The position numbers and the translations under genes were made by a program. 64,000 nt of DNA, from assembly GCA_038314665.1 (NCBI GenBank), contig GCA_038314665.1_3677.1. One strand, 5' to 3'. This document shows positions 2,714-64,000 of the stretch, piece by piece. Position 1 is the first letter of the stretch, and the number at the start of each line of letters is the position of its first letter. This stretch comes from a phage. Below the pieces are notes generated by a model, which worked only from the letters and a program-made list of their open reading frames with translations, searched no databases and was not told the origin of the DNA.

Positions 2714-5311
2714 ATGCGTATTCAACACAACATTGATAACGTATTTCAGATGATTGAGGGGCACAGGAAGTGCCTCGATAACAACACAGGTATTACCAAC
2801 ACCCCTACACAAAATAAGTTAGTGAACCCTGATGGTCTTATAGCTGCAGGGTGGGCAGGTAATAAGATAAATAATGATTGGGCAATGCATGAGGCCCAAG
2901 CTGTGTTGATTCTGGGGTACATTGAAGCATACAGGGCATCGAAAAGCGATTTCTACCTGGATAGGGCAAAAGATGCTTGGGAAGCTTACAATAGTCATCT
3001 TCTGGGTGCATATGCAGTAGAAAGTAAAATGCAAAGATTGTCCCACTACCCTCTATCCACAGACGGGGTTCCATCGCATGGTGGGTTTAAAGATGTAGTG
3101 GTGTCTTTTACCAATGGTAGAGGAAAAATCCCAGCTGGATCTCCGACATGGGGGGAATATCTGGACAAGGCATTCCAAGCGTATAACGGCGTGTTAGGAA
3201 GAAACACTGTAGACTCTGATGTTTACGGTGGCACAGATGATAACCCAGATTGGACAACATCCGGATTAAGTTGGTGGGTTGAGTGGTATATAGCATGGGA
3301 TGGTAATCGCTATTGGGCTAACGGTAGCATAGCTGATAGTGGTCATACGTCTGTAGAGTTTGGCACAATCCAATTACAAGACAAGGGTGTTACAGGCAAC
3401 CACAAAGTGACCTATTGTGTAAGATTACCTCAAGAGCAGGGTGGATCGGTGATCCCTGCTGGATCCCCTGTAATTGTGAATCCTATAAACGTGGTTGCAG
3501 ACAATCAAGCCCCAGAGTTGGATGGGGAAGAAATGTGGTGTGACGCTTGTTATCAACTCTACACCTTGACAGGTGAGGAAAAGTATTACACCGCGTTTAA
3601 ACAGTCTTACAACAAGTTGCTTAATTTCAGTGATATAAACGCTTACGACAAACTGTTTAGAAAGACCACGTTGATTAAGGCACCATTTACAGATGGTACT
3701 TGTCTTGTTGCAGGAACAGTTCCTGTCACGAGCAGAGACAGTGACGGGTATATCAATTTTAGAATGAACGCACGCCAGCCTTGCGAAATAATTCAAAAAG
3801 GTACCACCTACAAAATAGGCAGAGATGCTGAAATTGTCATGAATTTCGGAGGAGAGGGGGTTCTGTTCCAGCCACATTTCATCCTTAATGATGGCAACAA
3901 TAACAAAAAACAGTACAGGATAGGTGTCCCTTTTGGAGGTGCAGAGGTAACAGAAATAGTTGCCAAGGTTACCGATTTCGTAGAGGTAGTTGGTAAAGAC
4001 GGTAATCCGTACCTCTTACCTAAAGAGGAAAACATTGCCGTGAGCGGTGGTGCCAGTGTTAGTATGCAGTACGATACTGACATTTACAACCACTCTGACA
4101 ACTTCACCCGTTGTAATATAGCAAGAGGCAAAGTAACTTTCAATTTTGGAAGAGAGATTTCTTTAAACTCAGTAACTTATCGATCAGATGATGAGATGGT
4201 AAGGGTCAAATTTCTTGACAAAGATAGGTGGTTATGGTATGCTGATCTATATGCCACTAATGGACAATGGATAACAGAAACTCTTACTCTAGGAGATTTC
4301 AAACTAGATCCGACACAACCTCATCACACTGAAGAAGAGATTAAACCTTTCTTTGCTAATCCTAAGGGACTCACCTCTGTAGATTTCAGCCTAAGCGACA
4401 GACAGATAGGTAATGGCTTGTTTGATCTATATTGCGTCAACACACTGCCGCAATTCTATATTGCAGATAGGGATGCTTATCTAATCTGGTTTAGCGTATG
4501 GATGGCAAGCAAGACAGAATCAACCGCTAAGGTTGGTGATTGCTATGTCAGAAACTACAAGCAAGGTGCATACAGGCACACTCCTGGTGTGTTCCCTGCC
4601 GGAAAGGTGATAGATAAGGAAAATTACCTCTTGGAGGAAAAGCCAAATTGGCCATATCCAGGTATGCAATACCCAGCAGTCTACTGTATGGGTGCAGAAA
4701 ACATAGATCGCTATAGGTTGTCAAATACAATAGGCTTTCTGTATGACGCTCAAGTCTGGTATAATAACACATTTAAGACAGAGGGTCCAGTCGCCTCACG
4801 TTATGTATGGCAGAGAGGTAATGAAGGATTAACTGGTTGGTGGGAGATGGTAGATAACTCTAAGCTCCAGTCAAGATCTTTTGTTGCTGCGTGCCGCACA
4901 ATCTATGAGCTCAAGAAACATAAAGAACCTGTTGATGAAAGATTATTCCTGTTCTGCCAGAAATGGGCATGGTTCCTCAACAGATTCCAGTCATCTCATT
5001 CAGGAAATCTACCTACAGACTTTAACACCTCTGGGGGATATTCTTATCAAGACAGAGGAGACAGGATGTGGGTGGTAGGTGAATGGCTTGCAGGCTGCTG
5101 CTGGCTAGGTCTGTGCGGGTATTCAGAGACAATACCACAAATAGATATTGTTGTAGAAGCCTGTGTGAAGCTACTGCAAAAGCACCACTTCATTAATGGT
5201 GATAATGTTTTAAACGGCTGCTGGGCAGTTTCTGATCCGGTGGGCTATCACTCTGGCGAAATCCTTCGCGGTCTGGGACTTTATGCTCAATACCGTGGAT
5301 TGTACCTTTAA
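2714..5311 (+). CDS. large virion protein, possible tail-associated enzyme/tailspike
   Basis: 865-aa ORF inside fibre cluster, start overlaps upstream stop; Trp/Tyr-rich, no clear catalytic motif identified. Confidence 0.35.
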   Translation: MRIQHNIDNVFQMIEGHRKCLDNNTGITNTPTQNKLVNPDGLIAAGWAGNKINNDWAMHEAQAVLILGYIEAYRASKSDFYLDRAKDAWEAYNSHLLGAYAVESKMQRLSHYPLSTDGVPSHGGFKDVVVSFTNGRGKIPAGSPTWGEYLDKAFQAYNGVLGRNTVDSDVYGGTDDNPDWTTSGLSWWVEWYIAWDGNRYWANGSIADSGHTSVEFGTIQLQDKGVTGNHKVTYCVRLPQEQGGSVIPAGSPVIVNPINVVADNQAPELDGEEMWCDACYQLYTLTGEEKYYTAFKQSYNKLLNFSDINAYDKLFRKTTLIKAPFTDGTCLVAGTVPVTSRDSDGYINFRMNARQPCEIIQKGTTYKIGRDAEIVMNFGGEGVLFQPHFILNDGNNNKKQYRIGVPFGGAEVTEIVAKVTDFVEVVGKDGNPYLLPKEENIAVSGGASVSMQYDTDIYNHSDNFTRCNIARGKVTFNFGREISLNSVTYRSDDEMVRVKFLDKDRWLWYADLYATNGQWITETLTLGDFKLDPTQPHHTEEEIKPFFANPKGLTSVDFSLSDRQIGNGLFDLYCVNTLPQFYIADRDAYLIWFSVWMASKTESTAKVGDCYVRNYKQGAYRHTPGVFPAGKVIDKENYLLEEKPNWPYPGMQYPAVYCMGAENIDRYRLSNTIGFLYDAQVWYNNTFKTEGPVASRYVWQRGNEGLTGWWEMVDNSKLQSRSFVAACRTIYELKKHKEPVDERLFLFCQKWAWFLNRFQSSHSGNLPTDFNTSGGYSYQDRGDRMWVVGEWLAGCCWLGLCGYSETIPQIDIVVEACVKLLQKHHFINGDNVLNGCWAVSDPVGYHSGEILRGLGLYAQYRGLYL

Positions 5312-57948: not shown

Positions 57949-58527
57949 ATGAAATGCAAACGTTGTGGGGAGGACAAGGAGGCCTCCGACTTCTACACCA
58001 GCAACAAATCAACGTGCAAAGAGTGCTGTAAGAAGGCCAGCAGGGAGGCTGACCAATTTGCTAAAGACTCTTCAGAAAAAGGTGTAATACGTGTGTTGTA
58101 CAAAACTCAAAAGTGCAACAGCAAGCAAAGAGGTCACCCTCCTCCGACTTACACCAAAAAAGAGTTTAAAGAGTGGCTATACCTAAACGGTTACAAAGAG
58201 TTGTATGACCAATGGGTAGCCAGCGGATACGACAAAAGGAAAAAGCCTTCTTGTGACAGGATAGACGATTTCAAAGGATACTCTTTTGATAATATCCGTT
58301 TAACAACTTGGGGAGAAAATAAAGACAAGCAGACAGAGGATATTCTGTTACATAGAAGCACCAGCGGTAGACGGTGCAAAAATGTAAGGAGATTGGACAT
58401 GAATGGCAACGTTCTTAAAGAATGGGTATCCCACAACTCTTGCAGCAGAGAAACCGGAATATATGTTGGTTACTACATTCATGAAAAAATTCCAGCCCCC
58501 GATGGATACCTCTATGAATACTTTTAG
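57949..58527 (+). CDS. Cys-rich zinc-finger protein, possible nuclease
   Basis: 192 aa; N-terminal CKRC..CKECC zinc-finger-like cysteines; no definitive HNH or GIY-YIG motif seen. Confidence 0.3.
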   Translation: MKCKRCGEDKEASDFYTSNKSTCKECCKKASREADQFAKDSSEKGVIRVLYKTQKCNSKQRGHPPPTYTKKEFKEWLYLNGYKELYDQWVASGYDKRKKPSCDRIDDFKGYSFDNIRLTTWGENKDKQTEDILLHRSTSGRRCKNVRRLDMNGNVLKEWVSHNSCSRETGIYVGYYIHEKIPAPDGYLYEYF

Positions 58528-58542
58528 CACCTAACCAACATA

Positions 58543-58570
58543 GCCCTGCCCGAAAGGGTGGGGCATTTTT
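58543..58570 (+). terminator. rho-independent terminator (copy 2 of duplicated hairpin)
   Basis: gccctgccc-GAAA-gggtggggc followed by attttt; identical hairpin to 47534..47555. Confidence 0.55.
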
Positions 58571-58589
58571 GTATAAGGAGATCTGAAAA

Positions 58590-59006
58590 ATGACATTAGA
58601 AGATATCATTGTTAAACCTGAGAACTATGACCAATACAACCTGTCAACTCAATCTGTAGACCTCGGATGCGCCACAGTCAGTGCATGGCTGGTTAACGGA
58701 AAAGAGCTTGACGAGTGCCTGGAAGCACACATGTCGGTGAATAAATTTCTTGATGAAAATACCCACTGGCTAGAGGGTGCAGGCGTATATGCTTCATGGT
58801 TGGAGAGTATGGGATTCGACTACCAATCTGAAGAAGGGTGGTGGAGCTATTTAGCTATCTGCCCAGAGACGCTGCAATGCTTCATGAAATATTCTGAAGA
58901 TTTGGAGTACCGGGCGGTGGTTGATAGTGCTATTGCCCGTTATAGCCGTAAACCTTTTTCCCACGACATTAAAACTGTGGAAGAATTTGTTGAAGTTTTC
59001 TGTTGA
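58590..59006 (+). CDS. hypothetical early protein
   Basis: 138-aa ORF, RBS AAGGAG. Confidence 0.45.
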   Translation: MTLEDIIVKPENYDQYNLSTQSVDLGCATVSAWLVNGKELDECLEAHMSVNKFLDENTHWLEGAGVYASWLESMGFDYQSEEGWWSYLAICPETLQCFMKYSEDLEYRAVVDSAIARYSRKPFSHDIKTVEEFVEVFC

Positions 59007-59102
59007 CACAGGTTGAAAGGTGTGCAATTATAACTTCATATAACGGGAGGACGCGATGAACGAAGAAAACTGGGATGTATAACTAACAGGAGGCCACTGC
59101 CC

Positions 59103-59300
59103 ATGATTTATCGAATCCGTGTAAGAGAAGATGCACCAGGTTGTTACTTTGACTGGCGTGGGTGGTGGTTTCTCCACCCAATGGATGGACTCACAGATAG
59201 AATGCTGGATGCTGCCCTTTATACAGATACCGATATAGAATATAATCTCTATCTGAAGGACGGTATAGATAACGGCCTGTTTGAAGCAATTCCTGTGTAA
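59103..59300 (+). CDS. hypothetical early protein
   Basis: 65-aa ORF, RBS AGGAGG. Confidence 0.35.
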   Translation: MIYRIRVREDAPGCYFDWRGWWFLHPMDGLTDRMLDAALYTDTDIEYNLYLKDGIDNGLFEAIPV

Positions 59301-59368
59301 GAGACTGTGATAGCTATGTTTTATGATCTTCCTGTAGCACCACCACCTGTTGAACCCGGAGAACTAAG

Positions 59369-59794
59369 ATGATCTATGAAATGCCAAAACTGATTCGCGA
59401 CGATGCCCAAAACGCTCACACCATTATTATGGGCAAACGCATGGATATTATTTGTCATAAAGATTTCTGGGAAGGAAGTTACTTCACAGAGTATTTTGGT
59501 AAACTGGACAATGGTCTGCTGATCCAGTTCTACACCGATGCGGAAAACAACATTCACTGGGAGTTCGAAACTGAAGATATTCATAAACTTTTCACCTTCC
59601 TAGGTATTAAGGTTGAGGCCAAGTTTGAAGAAGGTGAGTGCGACGATTGTGGATTCTACGAGGTAACAGATTTCTACCTCCCGAGTGGTGAGAACCTTTA
59701 CTATGAAAGCCACTTCGGCAACTCAAATATGCCACAAGGTTGGGATGAGTTTTTTGAAATTGCGGAAGAGGAGCTGGCATACCGTGATTATTGA
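59369..59794 (+). CDS. hypothetical early protein
   Basis: 141-aa ORF. Confidence 0.4.
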   Translation: MIYEMPKLIRDDAQNAHTIIMGKRMDIICHKDFWEGSYFTEYFGKLDNGLLIQFYTDAENNIHWEFETEDIHKLFTFLGIKVEAKFEEGECDDCGFYEVTDFYLPSGENLYYESHFGNSNMPQGWDEFFEIAEEELAYRDY

Positions 59795-60242
59795 TACTGT
59801 AGAGGGAGATTTAATCTCCCTTTTTAAGAGCGGTGCTGGTCACCTGATCCACGGTTGTAACTGCTTCCACACAATGGGCAAGGGGATAGCAAAACAGATT
59901 GCCCGTGAGTTCCCTCAAGCATTGGCAGCTGACAAAGAGACCAGACATGGTTGCCTAAGTAAACTGGGTGCGTTCTCCCGATGGGAGCACTTATCTCCGG
60001 TAGGTATTGTCTACGGAATCAATCTATATACTCAGTTCTACCCAGGACCTAATGCTGAGTATTTCTCAATCCTGAAAGGCTTTGAGCTAGTCAATGAAGT
60101 ATTCAGTGGATCTACTTTACCATTCTACATCCCTAAGATCGGGTGCGGCATAGGTGGTTTGAAGTGGGAGCACGTAGAGGACGTTATTAACCTTGCCACT
60201 TTTGATATGGATATTATCGTGGTGGAGTACAAAAAGTGTTGA
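59784..60242 (+). CDS. macro-domain protein (ADP-ribose binding/hydrolase-like)
   Basis: GTG 59784 after GAGGAG, overlapping upstream stop; HGCNCFHTMGKGIAKQIAREFP and IPKIGCGIGGL match macro-domain glycine-rich signatures; the longer track ORF from 59685 is probably not the real start. Confidence 0.55.
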   Translation: MIIDTVEGDLISLFKSGAGHLIHGCNCFHTMGKGIAKQIAREFPQALAADKETRHGCLSKLGAFSRWEHLSPVGIVYGINLYTQFYPGPNAEYFSILKGFELVNEVFSGSTLPFYIPKIGCGIGGLKWEHVEDVINLATFDMDIIVVEYKKC

Positions 60243-60267
60243 CAGCTGGTTTTTGAGATGGTATAGT
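60239..60267 (+). promoter_or_regulatory. sigma70-like promoter
   Basis: TTGACA - 17 nt - TATAGT. Confidence 0.5.
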
Positions 60268-60295
60268 CACTACAACGATTGAGAGAGGGAGCACT

Positions 60296-60466
60296 ATGGA
60301 GACTAAAATCTTAATTCTGGCTGTGATAGATACAACCGAAGGGGCTGTGTTCGAATCTGCAGGAGGGTATTTCTACCTACCCTACGGAAAAAGAACTGCT
60401 GAACCAAGTAAAGATTCAATCATCAAAGTGTTCCCGTGTGCTTTCTGGCTGGAGATTTTGGTATAA
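60296..60466 (+). CDS. small ORF (56 aa), hypothetical
   Basis: ATG after GAGGGAG, downstream of promoter 60239; below ORF-track length cut-off. Confidence 0.3.
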   Translation: METKILILAVIDTTEGAVFESAGGYFYLPYGKRTAEPSKDSIIKVFPCAFWLEILV

Positions 60467-60492
60467 GATTGCAGAGGATTTGGGAGAGAATT

Positions 60493-60687
60493 ATGAGAAA
60501 CAAGAGAGAGCTTTACTCTGGCGAGTGGATAAACGATCAACAGGTTGGAGAGGTAACCTGCTTCCGGTGTTTTACTCGGTACAATCTTAAAACTGCACCA
60601 AAAAGTGTTCCAAAGACTGATGGTTATTACATAAAAGAACCTCATTGCCCAAAATGTAAATGCCGATTGTACTGGAGCAATCTGTAA
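60493..60687 (+). CDS. small zinc-ribbon protein
   Basis: ATG 60493 after GGGAGAG; CFRC..CPKCKC motif. Confidence 0.35.
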   Translation: MRNKRELYSGEWINDQQVGEVTCFRCFTRYNLKTAPKSVPKTDGYYIKEPHCPKCKCRLYWSNL

Positions 60688-60691
60688 GAGG

Positions 60692-60719
60692 TTGACATCT
60701 GAAAACTGTAGTGTATAAT
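60692..60719 (+). promoter_or_regulatory. sigma70-like promoter
   Basis: TTGACA - 16 nt - TATAAT with TG just upstream of the -10. Confidence 0.55.
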
Positions 60720-60750
60720 GTACGCATAAACTAACAGAGAGCGATGTATT

Positions 60751-60942
60751 ATGGTAATTTTTAACCGGGATGGTATCATAGTTAGACAGCACCCGTTCCT
60801 TGAATACTATCAAATTGAGCAATGGTGCTACGGTGATTGCAGTCACTCCTATGGGCAAAGTTGGGGATATCGTACAGTTTTTGAATCAACAGACCTTGAC
60901 AAAGTAAGACAGAAAGTTTTAGAACTTATTAACAACAAGTGA
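60751..60942 (+). CDS. hypothetical early protein
   Basis: 63-aa ORF downstream of promoter 60692. Confidence 0.4.
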   Translation: MVIFNRDGIIVRQHPFLEYYQIEQWCYGDCSHSYGQSWGYRTVFESTDLDKVRQKVLELINNK

Positions 60943-60951
60943 GTATGATAT

Positions 60952-61284
60952 ATGGTAACATTAGAAAGACGTAAAGCTATCGCCGCCACACTGGCAGACA
61001 TCTTTTGGGATTGCAACTTAAAAGATACCCGAAATTGTGGCGCATCTGTAGATGTATTATTCCCACGGCCCACCATTGTTGCAATGGGAAACCTGTTAAA
61101 CGTAGTGTACGGAGCATGGGACAAAGAAGGTGGATTCTATATCTGGCAACCTGACTACGGATCCTGGAAAGAGGTAAGGGGTGCGGATGACTTTGGGCCT
61201 ACAGCTGCTAAGATGGATGGCTGGGAAATTTATGTTGGAAACGACATGAAGCTGAAAGGCGAGATTGTTTACTGGTTACCTTAA
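60952..61284 (+). CDS. hypothetical early protein
   Basis: 110-aa ORF. Confidence 0.4.
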   Translation: MVTLERRKAIAATLADIFWDCNLKDTRNCGASVDVLFPRPTIVAMGNLLNVVYGAWDKEGGFYIWQPDYGSWKEVRGADDFGPTAAKMDGWEIYVGNDMKLKGEIVYWLP

Positions 61285-61305
61285 GAAAGTTCAGGAGATA
61301 AAGTT

Positions 61306-61551
61306 ATGAACAAAGGGTGGACATTTGTAGACGGCGTTAAAAACATGCCTCTAGGAAAGTATATCGTAGCCATGGCTGATGAGGATGGCAATGTAGATTT
61401 CGGAGCTTGCGAGGTTGTTCTTGCAGGATCTGGTAACTATGTGAGTAAAACCGGGATAATTAACGGTCAGTTCTACTTTGATCACAACCCTGTTGTAGCG
61501 TATATGGCTATGCCAGAGTTCAAGTTCCCAAAGGAGGGTGTCGATGTTTAA
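61306..61551 (+). CDS. hypothetical early protein
   Basis: 81-aa ORF, RBS AGGAGA. Confidence 0.4.
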   Translation: MNKGWTFVDGVKNMPLGKYIVAMADEDGNVDFGACEVVLAGSGNYVSKTGIINGQFYFDHNPVVAYMAMPEFKFPKEGVDV

Positions 61552-61738
61552 GCTTAAATCTGCATGGAACATTGCTGTGGGGGATGAGATCCGCATTCCT
61601 GGTGGGAAGACCGTTATGAAGATATCTCGTGTTGAATACGAAGGTGACCGTGTATTCCACATCTTTGCAGAAGATGGTCGAGAAATTTATATACAGGCAG
61701 GCTCACACATCTATATTCGTAAAGGGGATGACAAATGA
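61538..61738 (+). CDS. hypothetical early protein
   Basis: 66-aa ORF overlapping neighbours. Confidence 0.35.
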   Translation: MSMFKLKSAWNIAVGDEIRIPGGKTVMKISRVEYEGDRVFHIFAEDGREIYIQAGSHIYIRKGDDK

Positions 61739-62064
61739 CAGAGATCATCATTTCAACTGCAGGGTATGTATTCCTGACAATCATTGCGCTGATCATCTTG
61801 GTGGTGGTGTATGGATTTGTTATCCTGCCTATTCTTGAGACATTTAGTTTATGTCGGTGTTGGAGAAAGGCTTACGGACCACAGCCGTGGAGAGACTGGC
61901 CCCACCTGTTACGCATAGCGTTCTCTTATGCCTATGATCACGCCAGCAGTGCATGCATAACCGGGTATCACGCCCACAACTGGAGCTGGGAAGGGTTGAG
62001 GAAATGGAATGTTACAAAGACCATACCTCTGCGCATGTACAAACCTAAAAACAAAGACAGCTGA
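61735..62064 (+). CDS. small membrane protein
   Basis: 109 aa; hydrophobic helix AGYVFLTIIALIILVVVYGFVILPIL. Confidence 0.4.
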   Translation: MTEIIISTAGYVFLTIIALIILVVVYGFVILPILETFSLCRCWRKAYGPQPWRDWPHLLRIAFSYAYDHASSACITGYHAHNWSWEGLRKWNVTKTIPLRMYKPKNKDS

Positions 62065-62094
62065 TACTTGAAAATTCCTGGCATATCAAGTGTA

Positions 62095-62123
62095 AGGAGG
62101 ATTTCTAAAATGGATTTCCTCCT
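62095..62123. repeat. perfect inverted repeat / hairpin
   Basis: aggagga - 15 nt - tcctcct. Confidence 0.4.
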
Positions 62124-62377
62124 TTTGATATTTCACCGGGCTGGATATTTTAAAATCCTTAGAAAATCAGAAAATGGATCGAAAACTAAAATGGATTTTT
62201 TCAGAGTGGGCGCGACAAGCTGAATCACCCATCCTATCGTTTGCACCATATTCCAGACCACCATTACAGATTTCCTGCACATACTCACATCCTTCTACTA
62301 TAACTCCCTCCACTTACCCTTGACCTTCTATGGTAACAATCTAACCACTATCTTGAAGTTGCGGTGCAGCTTTCCAG

Positions 62378-62466
62378 GTACTCGATCTGTTTTTCATTTC
62401 AAAGATTGAATTTTCTGAAAATTTTTCTCGATAAATTTCTCAGTACTCGATCTGTTTTTCGTTTTC
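62378..62466. repeat. direct repeats in AT-rich non-coding region
   Basis: gtactcgatctgtttttc at 62378-62395 and 62443-62460, with a second repeated unit (g)attttctg(a/g)aaat between and after them. Confidence 0.5.
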
Positions 62467-62667
62467 TGAATCGGATTTTCTGGAAATCGTTCCGGCTCTC
62501 GACCTGAAATTTTTGGGGACGAAATCGATTTTTCGTTTTCAGAAATGGATTTTTAAAATTTCTATATGGGAATATTTTAGTGGATACTGTTTTATAGGAA
62601 ATTGTTACGGATGGTAATTAGCATGCTAATTAAATTTATTAAATGCGAGGAGTTCTCATTTAGAATT

Positions 62668-62686
62668 TTGAATGATAATCATTCTC
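62668..62686. promoter_or_regulatory. Fur-box-like operator, copy 1
   Basis: TTGAATGATAATCATTCTC matches the 19-bp Fur consensus GATAATGATAATCATTATC at 15 of 19 positions (hand count). Confidence 0.45.
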
Positions 62687-62803
62687 GTTTGCAGAATAAC
62701 GGGCAGGCCCGGTGATTGTCTCCCGGCCCCCACTGCCCCGGCTTGCTATTATAGTAACACACAGGACAAAGAAAGCAAGAAGTTTTTGCATAAATTTTTA
62801 GAC

Positions 62804-62822
62804 GATAATGATAATCGTTCTC
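62804..62822. promoter_or_regulatory. Fur-box-like operator, copy 2
   Basis: GATAATGATAATCGTTCTC matches the Fur consensus at 17 of 19 positions (hand count). Confidence 0.5.
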
Positions 62823-63080
62823 ATTTCATGCAGCGCCCATCCCCGGTGGTTGTCTCCCCCGTCACCGGTGCCTGCCGTCCTTTCGATAGGTATATTGTGC
62901 CACCTGGCGGGGCCGCTGTCAACACTTTTCAAAAAATTTTTCTAACCTGATGCGCTAACCGCTGCAACCTGGCGGGGCCAGCCTGGCAGTACCTAACTGA
63001 CCAGGTAGGAGAGATGAAGGCTTGTAAACCTGGTGGGCCTATGCTATAGGATAGGTAACAATTGAAGAGGAGGTACAAAA

Positions 63081-63257
63081 ATGAAAGGTAATATAATCCC
63101 CCTGGAAAATGTAGCTATTAATGACGCTGAGGCTATCGCCCTGGTTGAAAAGGCTATGGCGGGAGCGTTGGAACATAAAGAAGAGTACGAAAAAATGATG
63201 GTTAACCTGGCAGGGGCGGCGGCTGGAGAATTCTGCCCAAAAAATAATTTTACATAA
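63081..63257 (+). CDS. small ORF (58 aa), hypothetical
   Basis: ATG 9 nt after GAAGAGGAGG; first ORF after the non-coding repeat region. Confidence 0.35.
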   Translation: MKGNIIPLENVAINDAEAIALVEKAMAGALEHKEEYEKMMVNLAGAAAGEFCPKNNFT

Positions 63258-63260
63258 TGG

Positions 63261-63289
63261 TTGACAGCTCGGATAGTTCTTGTTATTCT
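63261..63289 (+). promoter_or_regulatory. weak sigma70-like promoter
   Basis: TTGACA - 17 nt - TATTCT. Confidence 0.3.
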
Positions 63290-63341
63290 TATCCTCGCAA
63301 GGTGAACAACACCACACTAATTAACAAAGAGGATAAAAATT

Positions 63342-63539
63342 ATGAACGCATACGGAATCAAAGTACGTCGCAACACTCGCCAGGTGGTCACCGACCAAGT
63401 GATTTGCCGGGTGGATGTAACCATCAACAACGGGCAAGGCCTTTATAAATTTCGTCGCGGTCATAGCTATACCCTGCAACAGCTTAACCGTTGCGCCCTG
63501 ACAAAAGGTCAGATCAACCACTGGTTTAATAAAAAATAA
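63342..63539 (+). CDS. hypothetical protein
   Basis: 65-aa ORF with RBS AGAGGA. Confidence 0.4.
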   Translation: MNAYGIKVRRNTRQVVTDQVICRVDVTINNGQGLYKFRRGHSYTLQQLNRCALTKGQINHWFNKK

Positions 63540-63542
63540 ATA

Positions 63543-63571
63543 TTGACATATAGTCTGACACAAAATATACT
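63543..63571 (+). promoter_or_regulatory. sigma70-like promoter
   Basis: TTGACA - 17 nt - TATACT right after stop of 63342..63539. Confidence 0.5.
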
Positions 63572-63603
63572 GAAATCACAAAAGACACTAAGAGGATAAA
63601 ATC

Positions 63604-64000
63604 ATGAAAACCACAACCTTTAATTTTGATAATGCCGACTTCTCTTTTTCTGATGTCAAGAACTGCCGCCGTGATCGTGGATTTTACAAGGCTTATAATC
63701 TGGTGGGCCTGGACGATGACAATAATTTGCACGAAGTAGCTGAGATCCGGTATTATGCCGCCTCCAGCGGTAACACTCATTATTGCGTCTTTTGGATGCA
63801 CGACAGCAAGAACAACAAGTACGGTTATACTGGTGGCAAGGCGAGCGGTCACGGTTATGATAAAGCTAACGCAGCACTTGAAAGCGCGTTAAATGCTATG
63901 GGGATCACTGCCAACGGCTGGATCTATGAAGATGAGTTTTTGTCAGCACTTGCTGCCCACCTGGGGTATAAAAAGCACATTGTGACATGCGCCCACGAAT
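63604..64000 (+). CDS. hypothetical protein, N-terminal fragment (3' end outside window)
   Basis: ATG 63604 after AAGAGGA; frame open to window end (about 132 codons, no stop). Confidence 0.45.
   Translation, partial: MKTTTFNFDNADFSFSDVKNCRRDRGFYKAYNLVGLDDDNNLHEVAEIRYYAASSGNTHYCVFWMHDSKNNKYGYTGGKASGHGYDKANAALESALNAMGITANGWIYEDEFLSALAAHLGYKKHIVTCAHE

Follow-up and report, generated by a model that had tools for sequence, protein, structure and literature searches.

Fur-box arrays at the end of a predicted phage RNA in virulent myoviruses (Vequintavirinae, Stephanstirmvirinae): a possible iron-gated barrier to transcription

The Fur-box locus and its matches to the host operator

The DNA analysed here, referred to as the window, is a 64,000-nt stretch of phage sequence (contig GCA_038314665.1_3677.1 of GenBank assembly GCA_038314665.1) that is 96% identical, in the region of interest, to rV5-like coliphages (Vequintavirus: PDX, RudolfGeigy and rV5), with 122 matching phage records returned by sequence search. 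Between small plus-strand early genes lies a ~1-kb gap with little coding capacity (62068-63080), which contains two related modules, each combining a match to the operator of the host iron regulator Fur (Fur box) with an adjoining GC-rich segment (Table 1). The neighbouring genes all lack a function by annotation and include many encoding small uncharacterised proteins, and a tRNA search of the window returned none. Homologous loci in related phages and metagenomic contigs are given below by our own locus numbers (prefix L) where no phage name is used. Sixteen of the GenBank records matching this region bear the title ‘Campylobacter phage’ (D1, C7, A142 and others). Their sequence here shows ~96% identity to E. 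coli rV5-like phages, which suggests that they derive from mislabelled or contaminating phages.

An open frame crossing both modules, annotated as a hypothetical protein in rV5 (ORF 198) and RudolfGeigy, was rejected as a protein-coding gene. Its ATG at 62672 has no Shine-Dalgarno sequence upstream, the frame is reduced to 7 codons by a point change in L122 and to 27 codons in phage AlexBoehm, and its C-terminus varies through indels (91 to 109 aa among relatives) over DNA that stays conserved. The repeat blocks within it are read in different frames, their spacings (136 and 134) not being multiples of 3, and conserved DNA blocks also fall in differing frames in CR8 and Hena1. A preliminary description of the locus, made from the sequence alone, had called the modules non-coding, and the missing ribosome-binding site, the frame mismatch of the repeats, the truncated frames and the variable C-terminus bear this out. 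The ‘non-coding’ box of the rV5 annotation is a different region (104013-106618) and does not correspond to the Fur-box locus. Also in the rV5 record, a 285-bp ‘Rho-independent terminator’ is coextensive with ORF 196 (L001 4253-4537, equivalent to rV5 116195-116479), which is probably an annotation slip.

Rescoring against the 19-bp Fur consensus (GATAATGATAATCATTATC, a 7-1-7 inverted repeat) returned the two matches of the preliminary description at the same positions and with the same counts. The only 19-mers in the window that reach at least 14/19 are box 1, an overlapping second register of box 1 situated 6 bp further on (62674-62692; 14/19, matrix score 16.0) and box 2. In dinucleotide shuffles of the window, sites with at least 15/19 occurred at a mean of 0.235 and 17/19 was reached in 0/200; the expected number of 17/19 matches per window is 0.03, and the chance of two sites of at least 15/19 falling inside the AT-rich 1.1-kb region is 0.0005. 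Second registers are found at 62674 and 62809 (+6 bp), and relatives carry arrays of 2-6 boxes; overlapping registers spaced by 6 bp are the cluster pattern described for Fur (PMC2189734).

A weight matrix was built from 13 distinct phage boxes, picked by positional homology alone, and applied to 135 kb of E. coli K-12 sequence holding the ent, fep, fhu, fec, feo and ryhB loci. The top seven matches all lie at known Fur promoters, led by fecI (21.8), ryhB (21.8) and fepB/entC (21.3), with the remainder at ryhB, fepD/entS, fepB/entC and fhuA (15.0). Scoring with a Fur weight matrix had been put forward as a check in the preliminary description and, run here with a matrix of phage origin, it recovers the K-12 Fur promoters first. 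In the window, the two boxes score 28.3 and 27.0 versus 11.6 for the next unrelated position, and in the complete rV5 genome (137,947 bp) the homologous pair tops the scan with the same two scores, the next unrelated position scoring 15.1. Box 1 has 16 consecutive nucleotides (ATAATCATTCTCGTTT) in common with the fhuA box, and a phage box with its flank, in minus orientation (TGCAAATGAGAATGATT), differs from ryhB (TGCGAATGAGAATGATT) by one base. As judged from sequence, both sites are genuine matches to the host Fur operator, and Fur would be expected to bind the phage boxes.

Between one and six boxes are present at the same place in phages of E. coli, Klebsiella, Cronobacter, Pectobacterium, Erwinia, Salmonella, Serratia, Enterobacter and Aeromonas, the box-bearing groups being Vequintavirus, Certrevirus, Henunavirus, Seunavirus, Mydovirus, Phapecoctavirus, one Serratia phage and one Aeromonas phage. 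Certrevirus (phiTE, CR8, F5M1E) has a row of four boxes, Phapecoctavirus three to six, Mydovirus and the Serratia phage two, Henunavirus and Seunavirus one, and the Aeromonas phage one or two. Together with the adjoining end of the RNA element described below, the box is 83-88% identical between genera whose flanks no longer align, and the boxes are apparently conserved under selection. A search of IMG/VR with a first, looser pattern gave mostly false loci, and a stricter pattern returned 12 true loci only. Phages of this group encode no Fur homologue, so that a phage-encoded Fur was set aside, and the module has no similarity in 5,426 E. coli genomes, which removes a captured host promoter as its source.

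A predicted RNA element on the minus strand

The two modules are the product of a real, though diverged, duplication, as had been suggested. Two blocks, one of 20 nt (90% identity) and one of 17 nt (94%), recur at spacings of 136 and 134 bp (repeat families D6 and D7), and the module copies are identical in 60/91 aligned columns (66%), with an alignment score of 28 versus -6 ± 4.3 in shuffles. The accompanying segments, previously described as GC-rich and hairpin-prone, are indeed GC-rich (0.73 and 0.69, versus 0.36 in the flanking repeat region), but the second half of that description did not hold beyond a short covarying terminal stem: folding energies are no better than those of shuffles (mean z -0.5 on the plus strand and -0.8 on the minus strand), RNAalifold found no consensus fold and an inner stem is paired to only 57-59%, so that a stable hairpin was ruled out. 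A Rho-independent terminator, annotated at the homologous spot in phiTE, was likewise rejected, no U-run following the GC-rich segment on either strand.

Instead of hairpins, the GC-rich segments look like two copies of a ~50-nt minus-strand RNA, each with its own promoter. A covariance model of the element (R1) matches both on the minus strand. Copy 1 ends ...GUUAUUC, 7 nt before Fur box 1, and its true 5′ end may lie at ~62744-62741. In copy 2 the match covers 62832-62872 (18.4 bits, E 0.007) and ends 9 nt before Fur box 2, with a start predicted at ~62887; its 5′ half resembles L156 and L152. The element has the core GGAGACAAWCACC, varies in its 5′ half, is constant in its 3′ half, is present in several copies per genome and conforms to the consensus AU(A/G)GCG ... 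GGAGACAA(A/U)CACC ... CUGCC(C/U)G(C/U)(U/C)AUUC.

The same plan is found on the minus strand in every lineage, namely an A/T-rich block, a sigma70 promoter, a gap of ~7 nt and an element of 48-56 nt. A sigma70 promoter of at least 9/12 stands at the expected place in 27/47 modules versus 4% of random windows, and the hexamers vary between genera yet stay functional-looking. Upstream of the copy 2 promoter is an UP-like A/T-rich block (62923-62945), and this promoter has a counterpart in every Vequintavirus sequence examined. The weaker copy 1 promoter, for which a 19-nt spacer followed by TATAAT (62753-62748) is an alternative, is also preceded by an A/T-rich block (62779-62803), and its positional homologues in other genera read TTGCAA-17-TATATT, TTGATC-16-TATTAT, TTGACC-17-GATAAT and TTGCTT-16-TATTCT.

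The pairs of the terminal stem covary. Pair 3-49 is AU in 7 sequences, GC in 7 and GU in 3, with none unpaired, and pair 4-48 is GU in 9 and GC in 8; independent switches of pair type have occurred within Certrevirus, within Henunavirus and within the Seunavirus/Mydovirus group. The covariation score of the stem exceeds that of 500/500 shuffles and of all slid controls. Over the first five pairs, 94% are paired on the minus strand versus 78% on the plus strand, because many of the stem pairs are G.U. A small minus-strand peptide (RRQSPG... frame) was considered and rejected: L008, L155 and L014 either lack its start codon or have it out of frame, and anhysbys and L008 differ by a 1-nt indel that changes the frame. 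Small open frames on the minus strand are inconsistent between lineages, so that a non-coding RNA is the best interpretation of the element. With Rfam 15, window positions 58000-64000 gave no match at E up to 10, nor did seven related loci at E up to 5, and matches to the RNA core as candidate trans targets in the window (9, versus 4.6 expected) are no more than chance.

The element also occurs apart from the boxes. A metagenome scan with an anchor free of box sequence identified several contigs carrying the RNA element without any Fur box, among them a 6-kb freshwater contig (L147) with five copies, each ~20 nt after a perfect or near-perfect consensus promoter and two of the five followed by a hairpin and U-run. 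A third copy in rV5 (108181-108226, outside the window) lies on the gene strand and has no box. In 100,044 bacterial and archaeal species genomes the anchor was found once, in a phage fragment inside a metagenome-assembled genome. The element was thus seen on phage sequences only, in enterobacterial myoviruses and, without boxes, in contigs from freshwater metagenomes, and is all but missing from bacterial genomes.

In phage AlexBoehm (L127) one module has been lost by a clean 134-bp deletion, via a crossover within TTGTCTCC. The segment L127 1531-1640, corresponding to window 62716-62849, represents recombination between the two RNA cores and constitutes a single hybrid module. Since the copy 2 5′ arm can pair with the copy 1 3′ arm, the hybrid is predicted to form a hairpin of much greater stability (-33 kcal/mol, z -4.8).

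Several further features were noted around the RNA element. In L147, the promoters at 536-564, 1163-1191, 3351-3379 and 4511-4539 have a common spacer motif (TTAAAGTTGG, or CCAACTTTAA on the other strand), which also builds nearby hairpins and may be a phage-specific regulatory site. A different motif resembling AACCTGGCGGGGCC occurs four times in the window (62901-62917, 62966-62982, 63027-63043 and 63204-63220) and forms the GC-rich spacer of sigma70-like promoters both there and in phiTE (L003 2140-2168); the sequence at 63029-63036 (CCTGGTGG) has 7/8 bases of Chi. Genera other than Vequintavirus have a second conserved minus-strand unit beside the RNA, at the place of the second module of the window (L005 ~1640-1760; also L003, L004, L006, L008, L128 and L129), with a strong promoter and a predicted RNA of ~95 nt (...GCCACCCCACGGCGAAAAGGCGGGGCUAACG...) that has no Rfam match. 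A small minus-strand gene lies by the RNA cluster in other genera (L003 1776-2207, L004 1810-2076 and L128 1821-2006) and is absent from the window; the proteins of phiTE and anhysbys have a common motif, LGWQGGTVHQVA (phrog_19316/33408), and that of KpS11 belongs to DUF7170. The pseudo-ToxI locus of phiTE was considered and dismissed, as it is located elsewhere in the phiTE genome.

Table 1 Features of the Fur-box locus, with positions in the window unless another contig is named.
Feature	Position	Strand	Remarks
Fur box 1 (TTGAATGATAATCATTCTC)	62668..62686		15/19 to consensus; perfect 7-1-7 palindrome, GAATGAT-A-ATCATTC; matrix score 28.3
Fur box 2 (GATAATGATAATCGTTCTC)	62804..62822		17/19 to consensus; matrix score 27.0
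RNA element copy 1 (predicted)	62694..62749	-	R1 50.9 bits, E 1.6e-12; core GGGAGACAAUCACC; terminal stem AUAGC/GUUAU
RNA element copy 2 (predicted)	62832..62887	-	Core GGGAGACAACCACC; diverged 3′ arm; 5′ end from promoter position
Copy 1 promoter (putative)	62751..62778	-	TTGCTT (62778-62773)-16-TACTAT (62756-62751); 8/12, weaker; read from sequence
Copy 2 promoter (putative)	62894..62922	-	TTGACA-17-CACAAT, TG before -10; 10/12 (promoter scan)
Candidate rightward promoter over box 1	62638-62643, 62661-62666	+	ATTAAA-17-TAGAAT; 8/12; 9/12 in rV5 (ATGAAA); start inside box
Candidate rightward promoter over box 1	62668-62673, 62692-62697	+	TTGAAT-18-CAGAAT; 8/12; box in spacer
Candidate rightward promoter over box 2	62786..62815	+	TTGCAT-18-GATAAT; 8/12, below scan threshold; read from sequence
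Iteron-like repeats (three, 65-74 bp)	62368..62553		Core TACTCGATCTGTTTTTCGTTTTC; families D1 and D2; immediately left of the box/RNA cluster
Open frame, hypothetical protein (rV5 ORF 198)	62672..62950	+	Annotated in rV5 and RudolfGeigy; not a gene
RNA elements in L147 (five copies)	L147: 583-633, 1210-1258, 2035-2085, 3394-3447, 4564-4612		

Box position and possible roles of bound Fur

The boxes hold a constant relation to the end of the RNA element. The distance from the terminal ...AUUC to the start of the first box is 7 nt in nearly all lineages with boxes (9 nt in window copy 2), and the +6 register of box 1 extends to the last RNA bases. The preliminary description had proposed Fur-repressed promoters driving either the GC-rich segments, as small RNAs, or the genes from 63081 onwards. 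Small RNAs are predicted here too, but on the minus strand, with the box past the 3′ end and box-free promoters of their own on the far side, and the genes from 63081 have strong promoters of their own. CAGAAT, a candidate -10 hexamer on the plus strand, coincides with the conserved end of the RNA element: GAAT is invariant, also in box-less relatives, and the two bases ahead of it vary freely (CA, CG, CT, GA, GT or AT), even where there is no box. A box at its own promoter, Rfam homology and an intrinsic terminator, as seen in RNAs of the RyhB/PrrF type, are all lacking from the window RNA.

In lineages with a proximal box abutting the RNA 3′ end, the 160 nt that follow the RNA contain no intrinsic terminator. 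The sole terminator match in a box-bearing lineage is in L157, 69-87 nt past the RNA end, and the boxes there are weaker and displaced; a hairpin and U-run stand at the equivalent place in some box-less relatives. Plus-strand promoters of at least 9/12 overlapping the proximal box occur in 1/47 modules, which is background level (2%), and no promoter that overlaps or flanks the boxes is conserved across genera on either strand. In L144 and L148 the proximal box has decayed and distal boxes are strong, and L152 has a single box 57 nt away.

Our preferred reading, held tentatively and with less than even confidence, is that iron-loaded Fur acts as an iron-gated barrier to leftward transcription from the RNA promoters. 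With iron plentiful, Fe2+-Fur dimers would sit on both boxes, the +6 register allowing the Fur footprint to extend over the final bases of the RNA gene. In this position Fur would present a protein block to RNA polymerase coming from the promoters at 62922..62894 and 62778..62751, and would decide whether and where the RNA is completed, as well as whether transcription reads through. Read-through from copy 2 would cross box 2 and enter copy 1, and read-through from copy 1 would cross box 1, enter the repeat-rich region (62068-62660) with its iterons and run antisense into the upstream genes. When iron is scarce, Fur would leave and the barrier would open. The block to elongation and the effects downstream of it are both predictions from the arrangement of sites, and the earlier suggestion that phage expression is tied to host iron status is reasonable.

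Roadblock repression is documented for CodY and CcpA (cited in PMC4324032). A barrier is favoured here over a promoter operator because the boxes abut the RNA end, terminators are lacking, box number and position vary, and no overlapping promoter is conserved; the decayed proximal box of L144 and L148 and the distant box of L152 fit a barrier better than a fixed promoter geometry. Extended to virulent myoviruses of the Vequintavirinae and Stephanstirmvirinae as a whole, the proposal that Fur-operator arrays form an iron-gated barrier at the end of a phage RNA family without an Rfam match is more doubtful still. The retention of the layout by many related phages suggests that host iron status is read by them.

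Several points weigh against a barrier. The RNA itself is predicted, with unremarkable folding energies and no fold from RNAalifold, and the 5′ strand of the copy 1 terminal stem overlaps the weak -10 element of that copy, so that copy 1 may be produced mainly by read-through from the copy 2 promoter. Weak rightward promoters (8/12; 9/12 in rV5) overlap both boxes in this phage. Only ~3/9 box-less relatives have a clear terminator, the others having another promoter there, and replacement of a terminator by boxes would be a trend and not a rule. Fur normally acts by occluding promoters, we know of no case of a roadblock by Fur, and roadblocks are usually leaky against strong promoters. For intragenic boxes of Zur, a member of the Fur family, the outcome of a test was inconclusive (PMC4324032).

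The strongest competitor, a corrected version of the earlier proposal and itself somewhat unlikely, is that each box overlaps a weak rightward sigma70 promoter which Fur occludes and which fires under iron limitation, giving a product antisense to the leftward RNA, in collision with its promoter and perhaps reading towards 63081 in Vequintavirus. Such occlusion is the usual action of Fur, the ryhB box lying between TTGGAC and TATTAT, and an antisense promoter would also account for boxes that abut the RNA 3′ end. The window has three candidates (ATTAAA-17-TAGAAT, TTGAAT-18-CAGAAT and TTGCAT-18-GATAAT, the -10 of the last falling within box 2), five genera retain the TTGA flank of the proximal box, and Fur boxes are inherently -10-like, so that arrays could hold cryptic promoters. 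However, the promoter count over the proximal box is that of the background, no promoter position is common to the genera, and the essential A at position 2 of CAGAAT is gone in phiTE, L014, KpS11, L145, L155 and L076, whereas GAAT is kept as the RNA end even in box-less lineages. Decay of the proximal box in L144 and L148 while the distal boxes persist, and the strong promoters of the downstream genes, also argue against this arrangement.

The repeats to the left of the cluster raise a different, improbable explanation, in which the boxes serve this repeat region as an origin or similar site, Fur being an architectural or boundary protein and the leftward transcripts activating or priming. 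The iteron-like repeats sit where leftward read-through would enter, AAAATGGATTT is present in four copies (62102, 62183, 62463 and 62537), and in other genera this place is taken by equivalent arrays (six copies of GGGTCTCGATCG in Certrevirus; GGTACTCGATCGG in Seunavirus). Such repeats may serve an unknown protein as binding sites, or form an origin. The layout consists of iterons, an AT-rich box array and G-rich leftward transcripts from one or two tandem promoters, which would act like the two promoters that precede the AT-rich stretch of the T7 primary origin, and the phage has a T7-type DNA polymerase and primase-helicase (PMC3606486). Against this, the RNA is also found away from iterons (the five copies within 6 kb in L147 and the third, gene-strand copy in rV5), covariation in the terminal stem is more in keeping with a discrete RNA than with a primer, the adjoining genes include no replication protein, and a block under plentiful iron would make little sense at an origin. 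A perfect 18-bp palindrome (TAATTAGCATGCTAATTA, 62615-62632), conserved in Vequintavirus, was also noted between the iterons and Fur box 1.

Equally improbable is that the palindromes are bound by a phage protein or another host protein, with a convergent likeness to Fur sites. The phage boxes favour the symmetric variant TGAGAAT-N-ATTCTCA over TGATAAT-N-ATTATCA, and the small uncharacterised proteins encoded nearby are numerous, but the G variant is also found in real Fur sites, for example that of ryhB (AATGAGAATGATT), and the matrix derived from phage boxes specifically recovers host Fur sites. The motif is moreover constant across diverged phages with hosts from Aeromonas to Escherichia, which fits a conserved host factor, and these phages lack a Fur homologue of their own. 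Least probable is a decoy, an alternative offered in the preliminary description, whereby replicating boxes would titrate Fur and de-repress host iron uptake and iron sparing to feed iron-dependent ribonucleotide reductases of the phage: there are up to 6 strong boxes per genome, rV5 encodes NrdA/B and NrdD/G, and multicopy Fur boxes do titrate Fur (the basis of the Fur titration assay, FURTA), but some lineages have one box only (Hena1, L008), titration would come late in infection, and the decoy is disfavoured because the boxes are always at one position abutting the RNA 3′ end.

Significance and relation to known systems

Strictly virulent phages infecting at least nine host genera thus keep strong Fur sites at a fixed non-coding position. 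Such phages (rV5-like, phi92-like and PVP-SE1-like) are common in therapy and biocontrol cocktails. If Fur binds these sites, the infection programme would be wired to host iron status. Consequences for phage efficacy in vivo would follow, iron in the gut or in inflamed tissue being very different from that in laboratory broth. Were the barrier correct, host iron would be read via Fur to steer a non-coding RNA programme or the entry of transcription into the iterons, adding a new mode of Fur action (elongation roadblock) and a new class of phage RNA. A conserved RNA with no Rfam match and a natural one-module variant, AlexBoehm, make the question directly testable. A literature search turned up neither reports of Fur boxes or small RNAs for this group nor transcript data; the Fur operator itself is ordinary, and its placement in virulent phages and at an RNA 3′ end, as well as the RNA family, appear to be unreported in the searchable literature.

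The E. coli ryhB, fhuA, fecI and fepB/entC promoters have the same operator sequence as the phage and, at ryhB, a small RNA beside the box. At ryhB, however, the box lies between the -35 and -10 of its own promoter, whereas in the phage it lies past the RNA 3′ end and the promoter is separate and box-free; the phage RNA has no sequence or Rfam similarity to RyhB and no terminator hairpin. PrrF1 and PrrF2 of Pseudomonas are tandem Fur-regulated small RNAs with a box at each promoter and intrinsic terminators. The phage locus resembles them in having two tandem diverged RNA copies, each with a Fur box, but this is a resemblance of layout only, given the promoter boxes and terminators of PrrF and the lack of an Rfam match for the phage RNA.

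The put RNA of HK022 is a promoter-proximal, cis-acting antitermination RNA with two stem-loops, ~70 nt in total. Like put, the phage element is a short structured RNA situated directly downstream of strong phage promoters and present in more than one copy; unlike put, it has one short terminal stem and a conserved core, with no sequence relationship, so that the likeness is a lead only and antitermination is not supported. The CodY and CcpA roadblocks parallel the barrier proposed here in that an operator downstream of a promoter halts elongating polymerase, which for Fur is a proposal only.

To our knowledge, the Fur boxes otherwise known on phage DNA all lie upstream of cargo genes of bacterial type that temperate phages carry. 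The stx1 promoter has a Fur box on temperate-phage cargo, and the sitABCD operon carried by lambdoid phages is likewise cargo with a Fur box (PMC6969025). These resemble the window in placing host Fur operators on phage DNA, but they are ordinary promoter operators of bacterial-type cargo in temperate phages, whereas the window and its relatives have arrays in a non-coding early region of virulent myoviruses, beside a predicted RNA.

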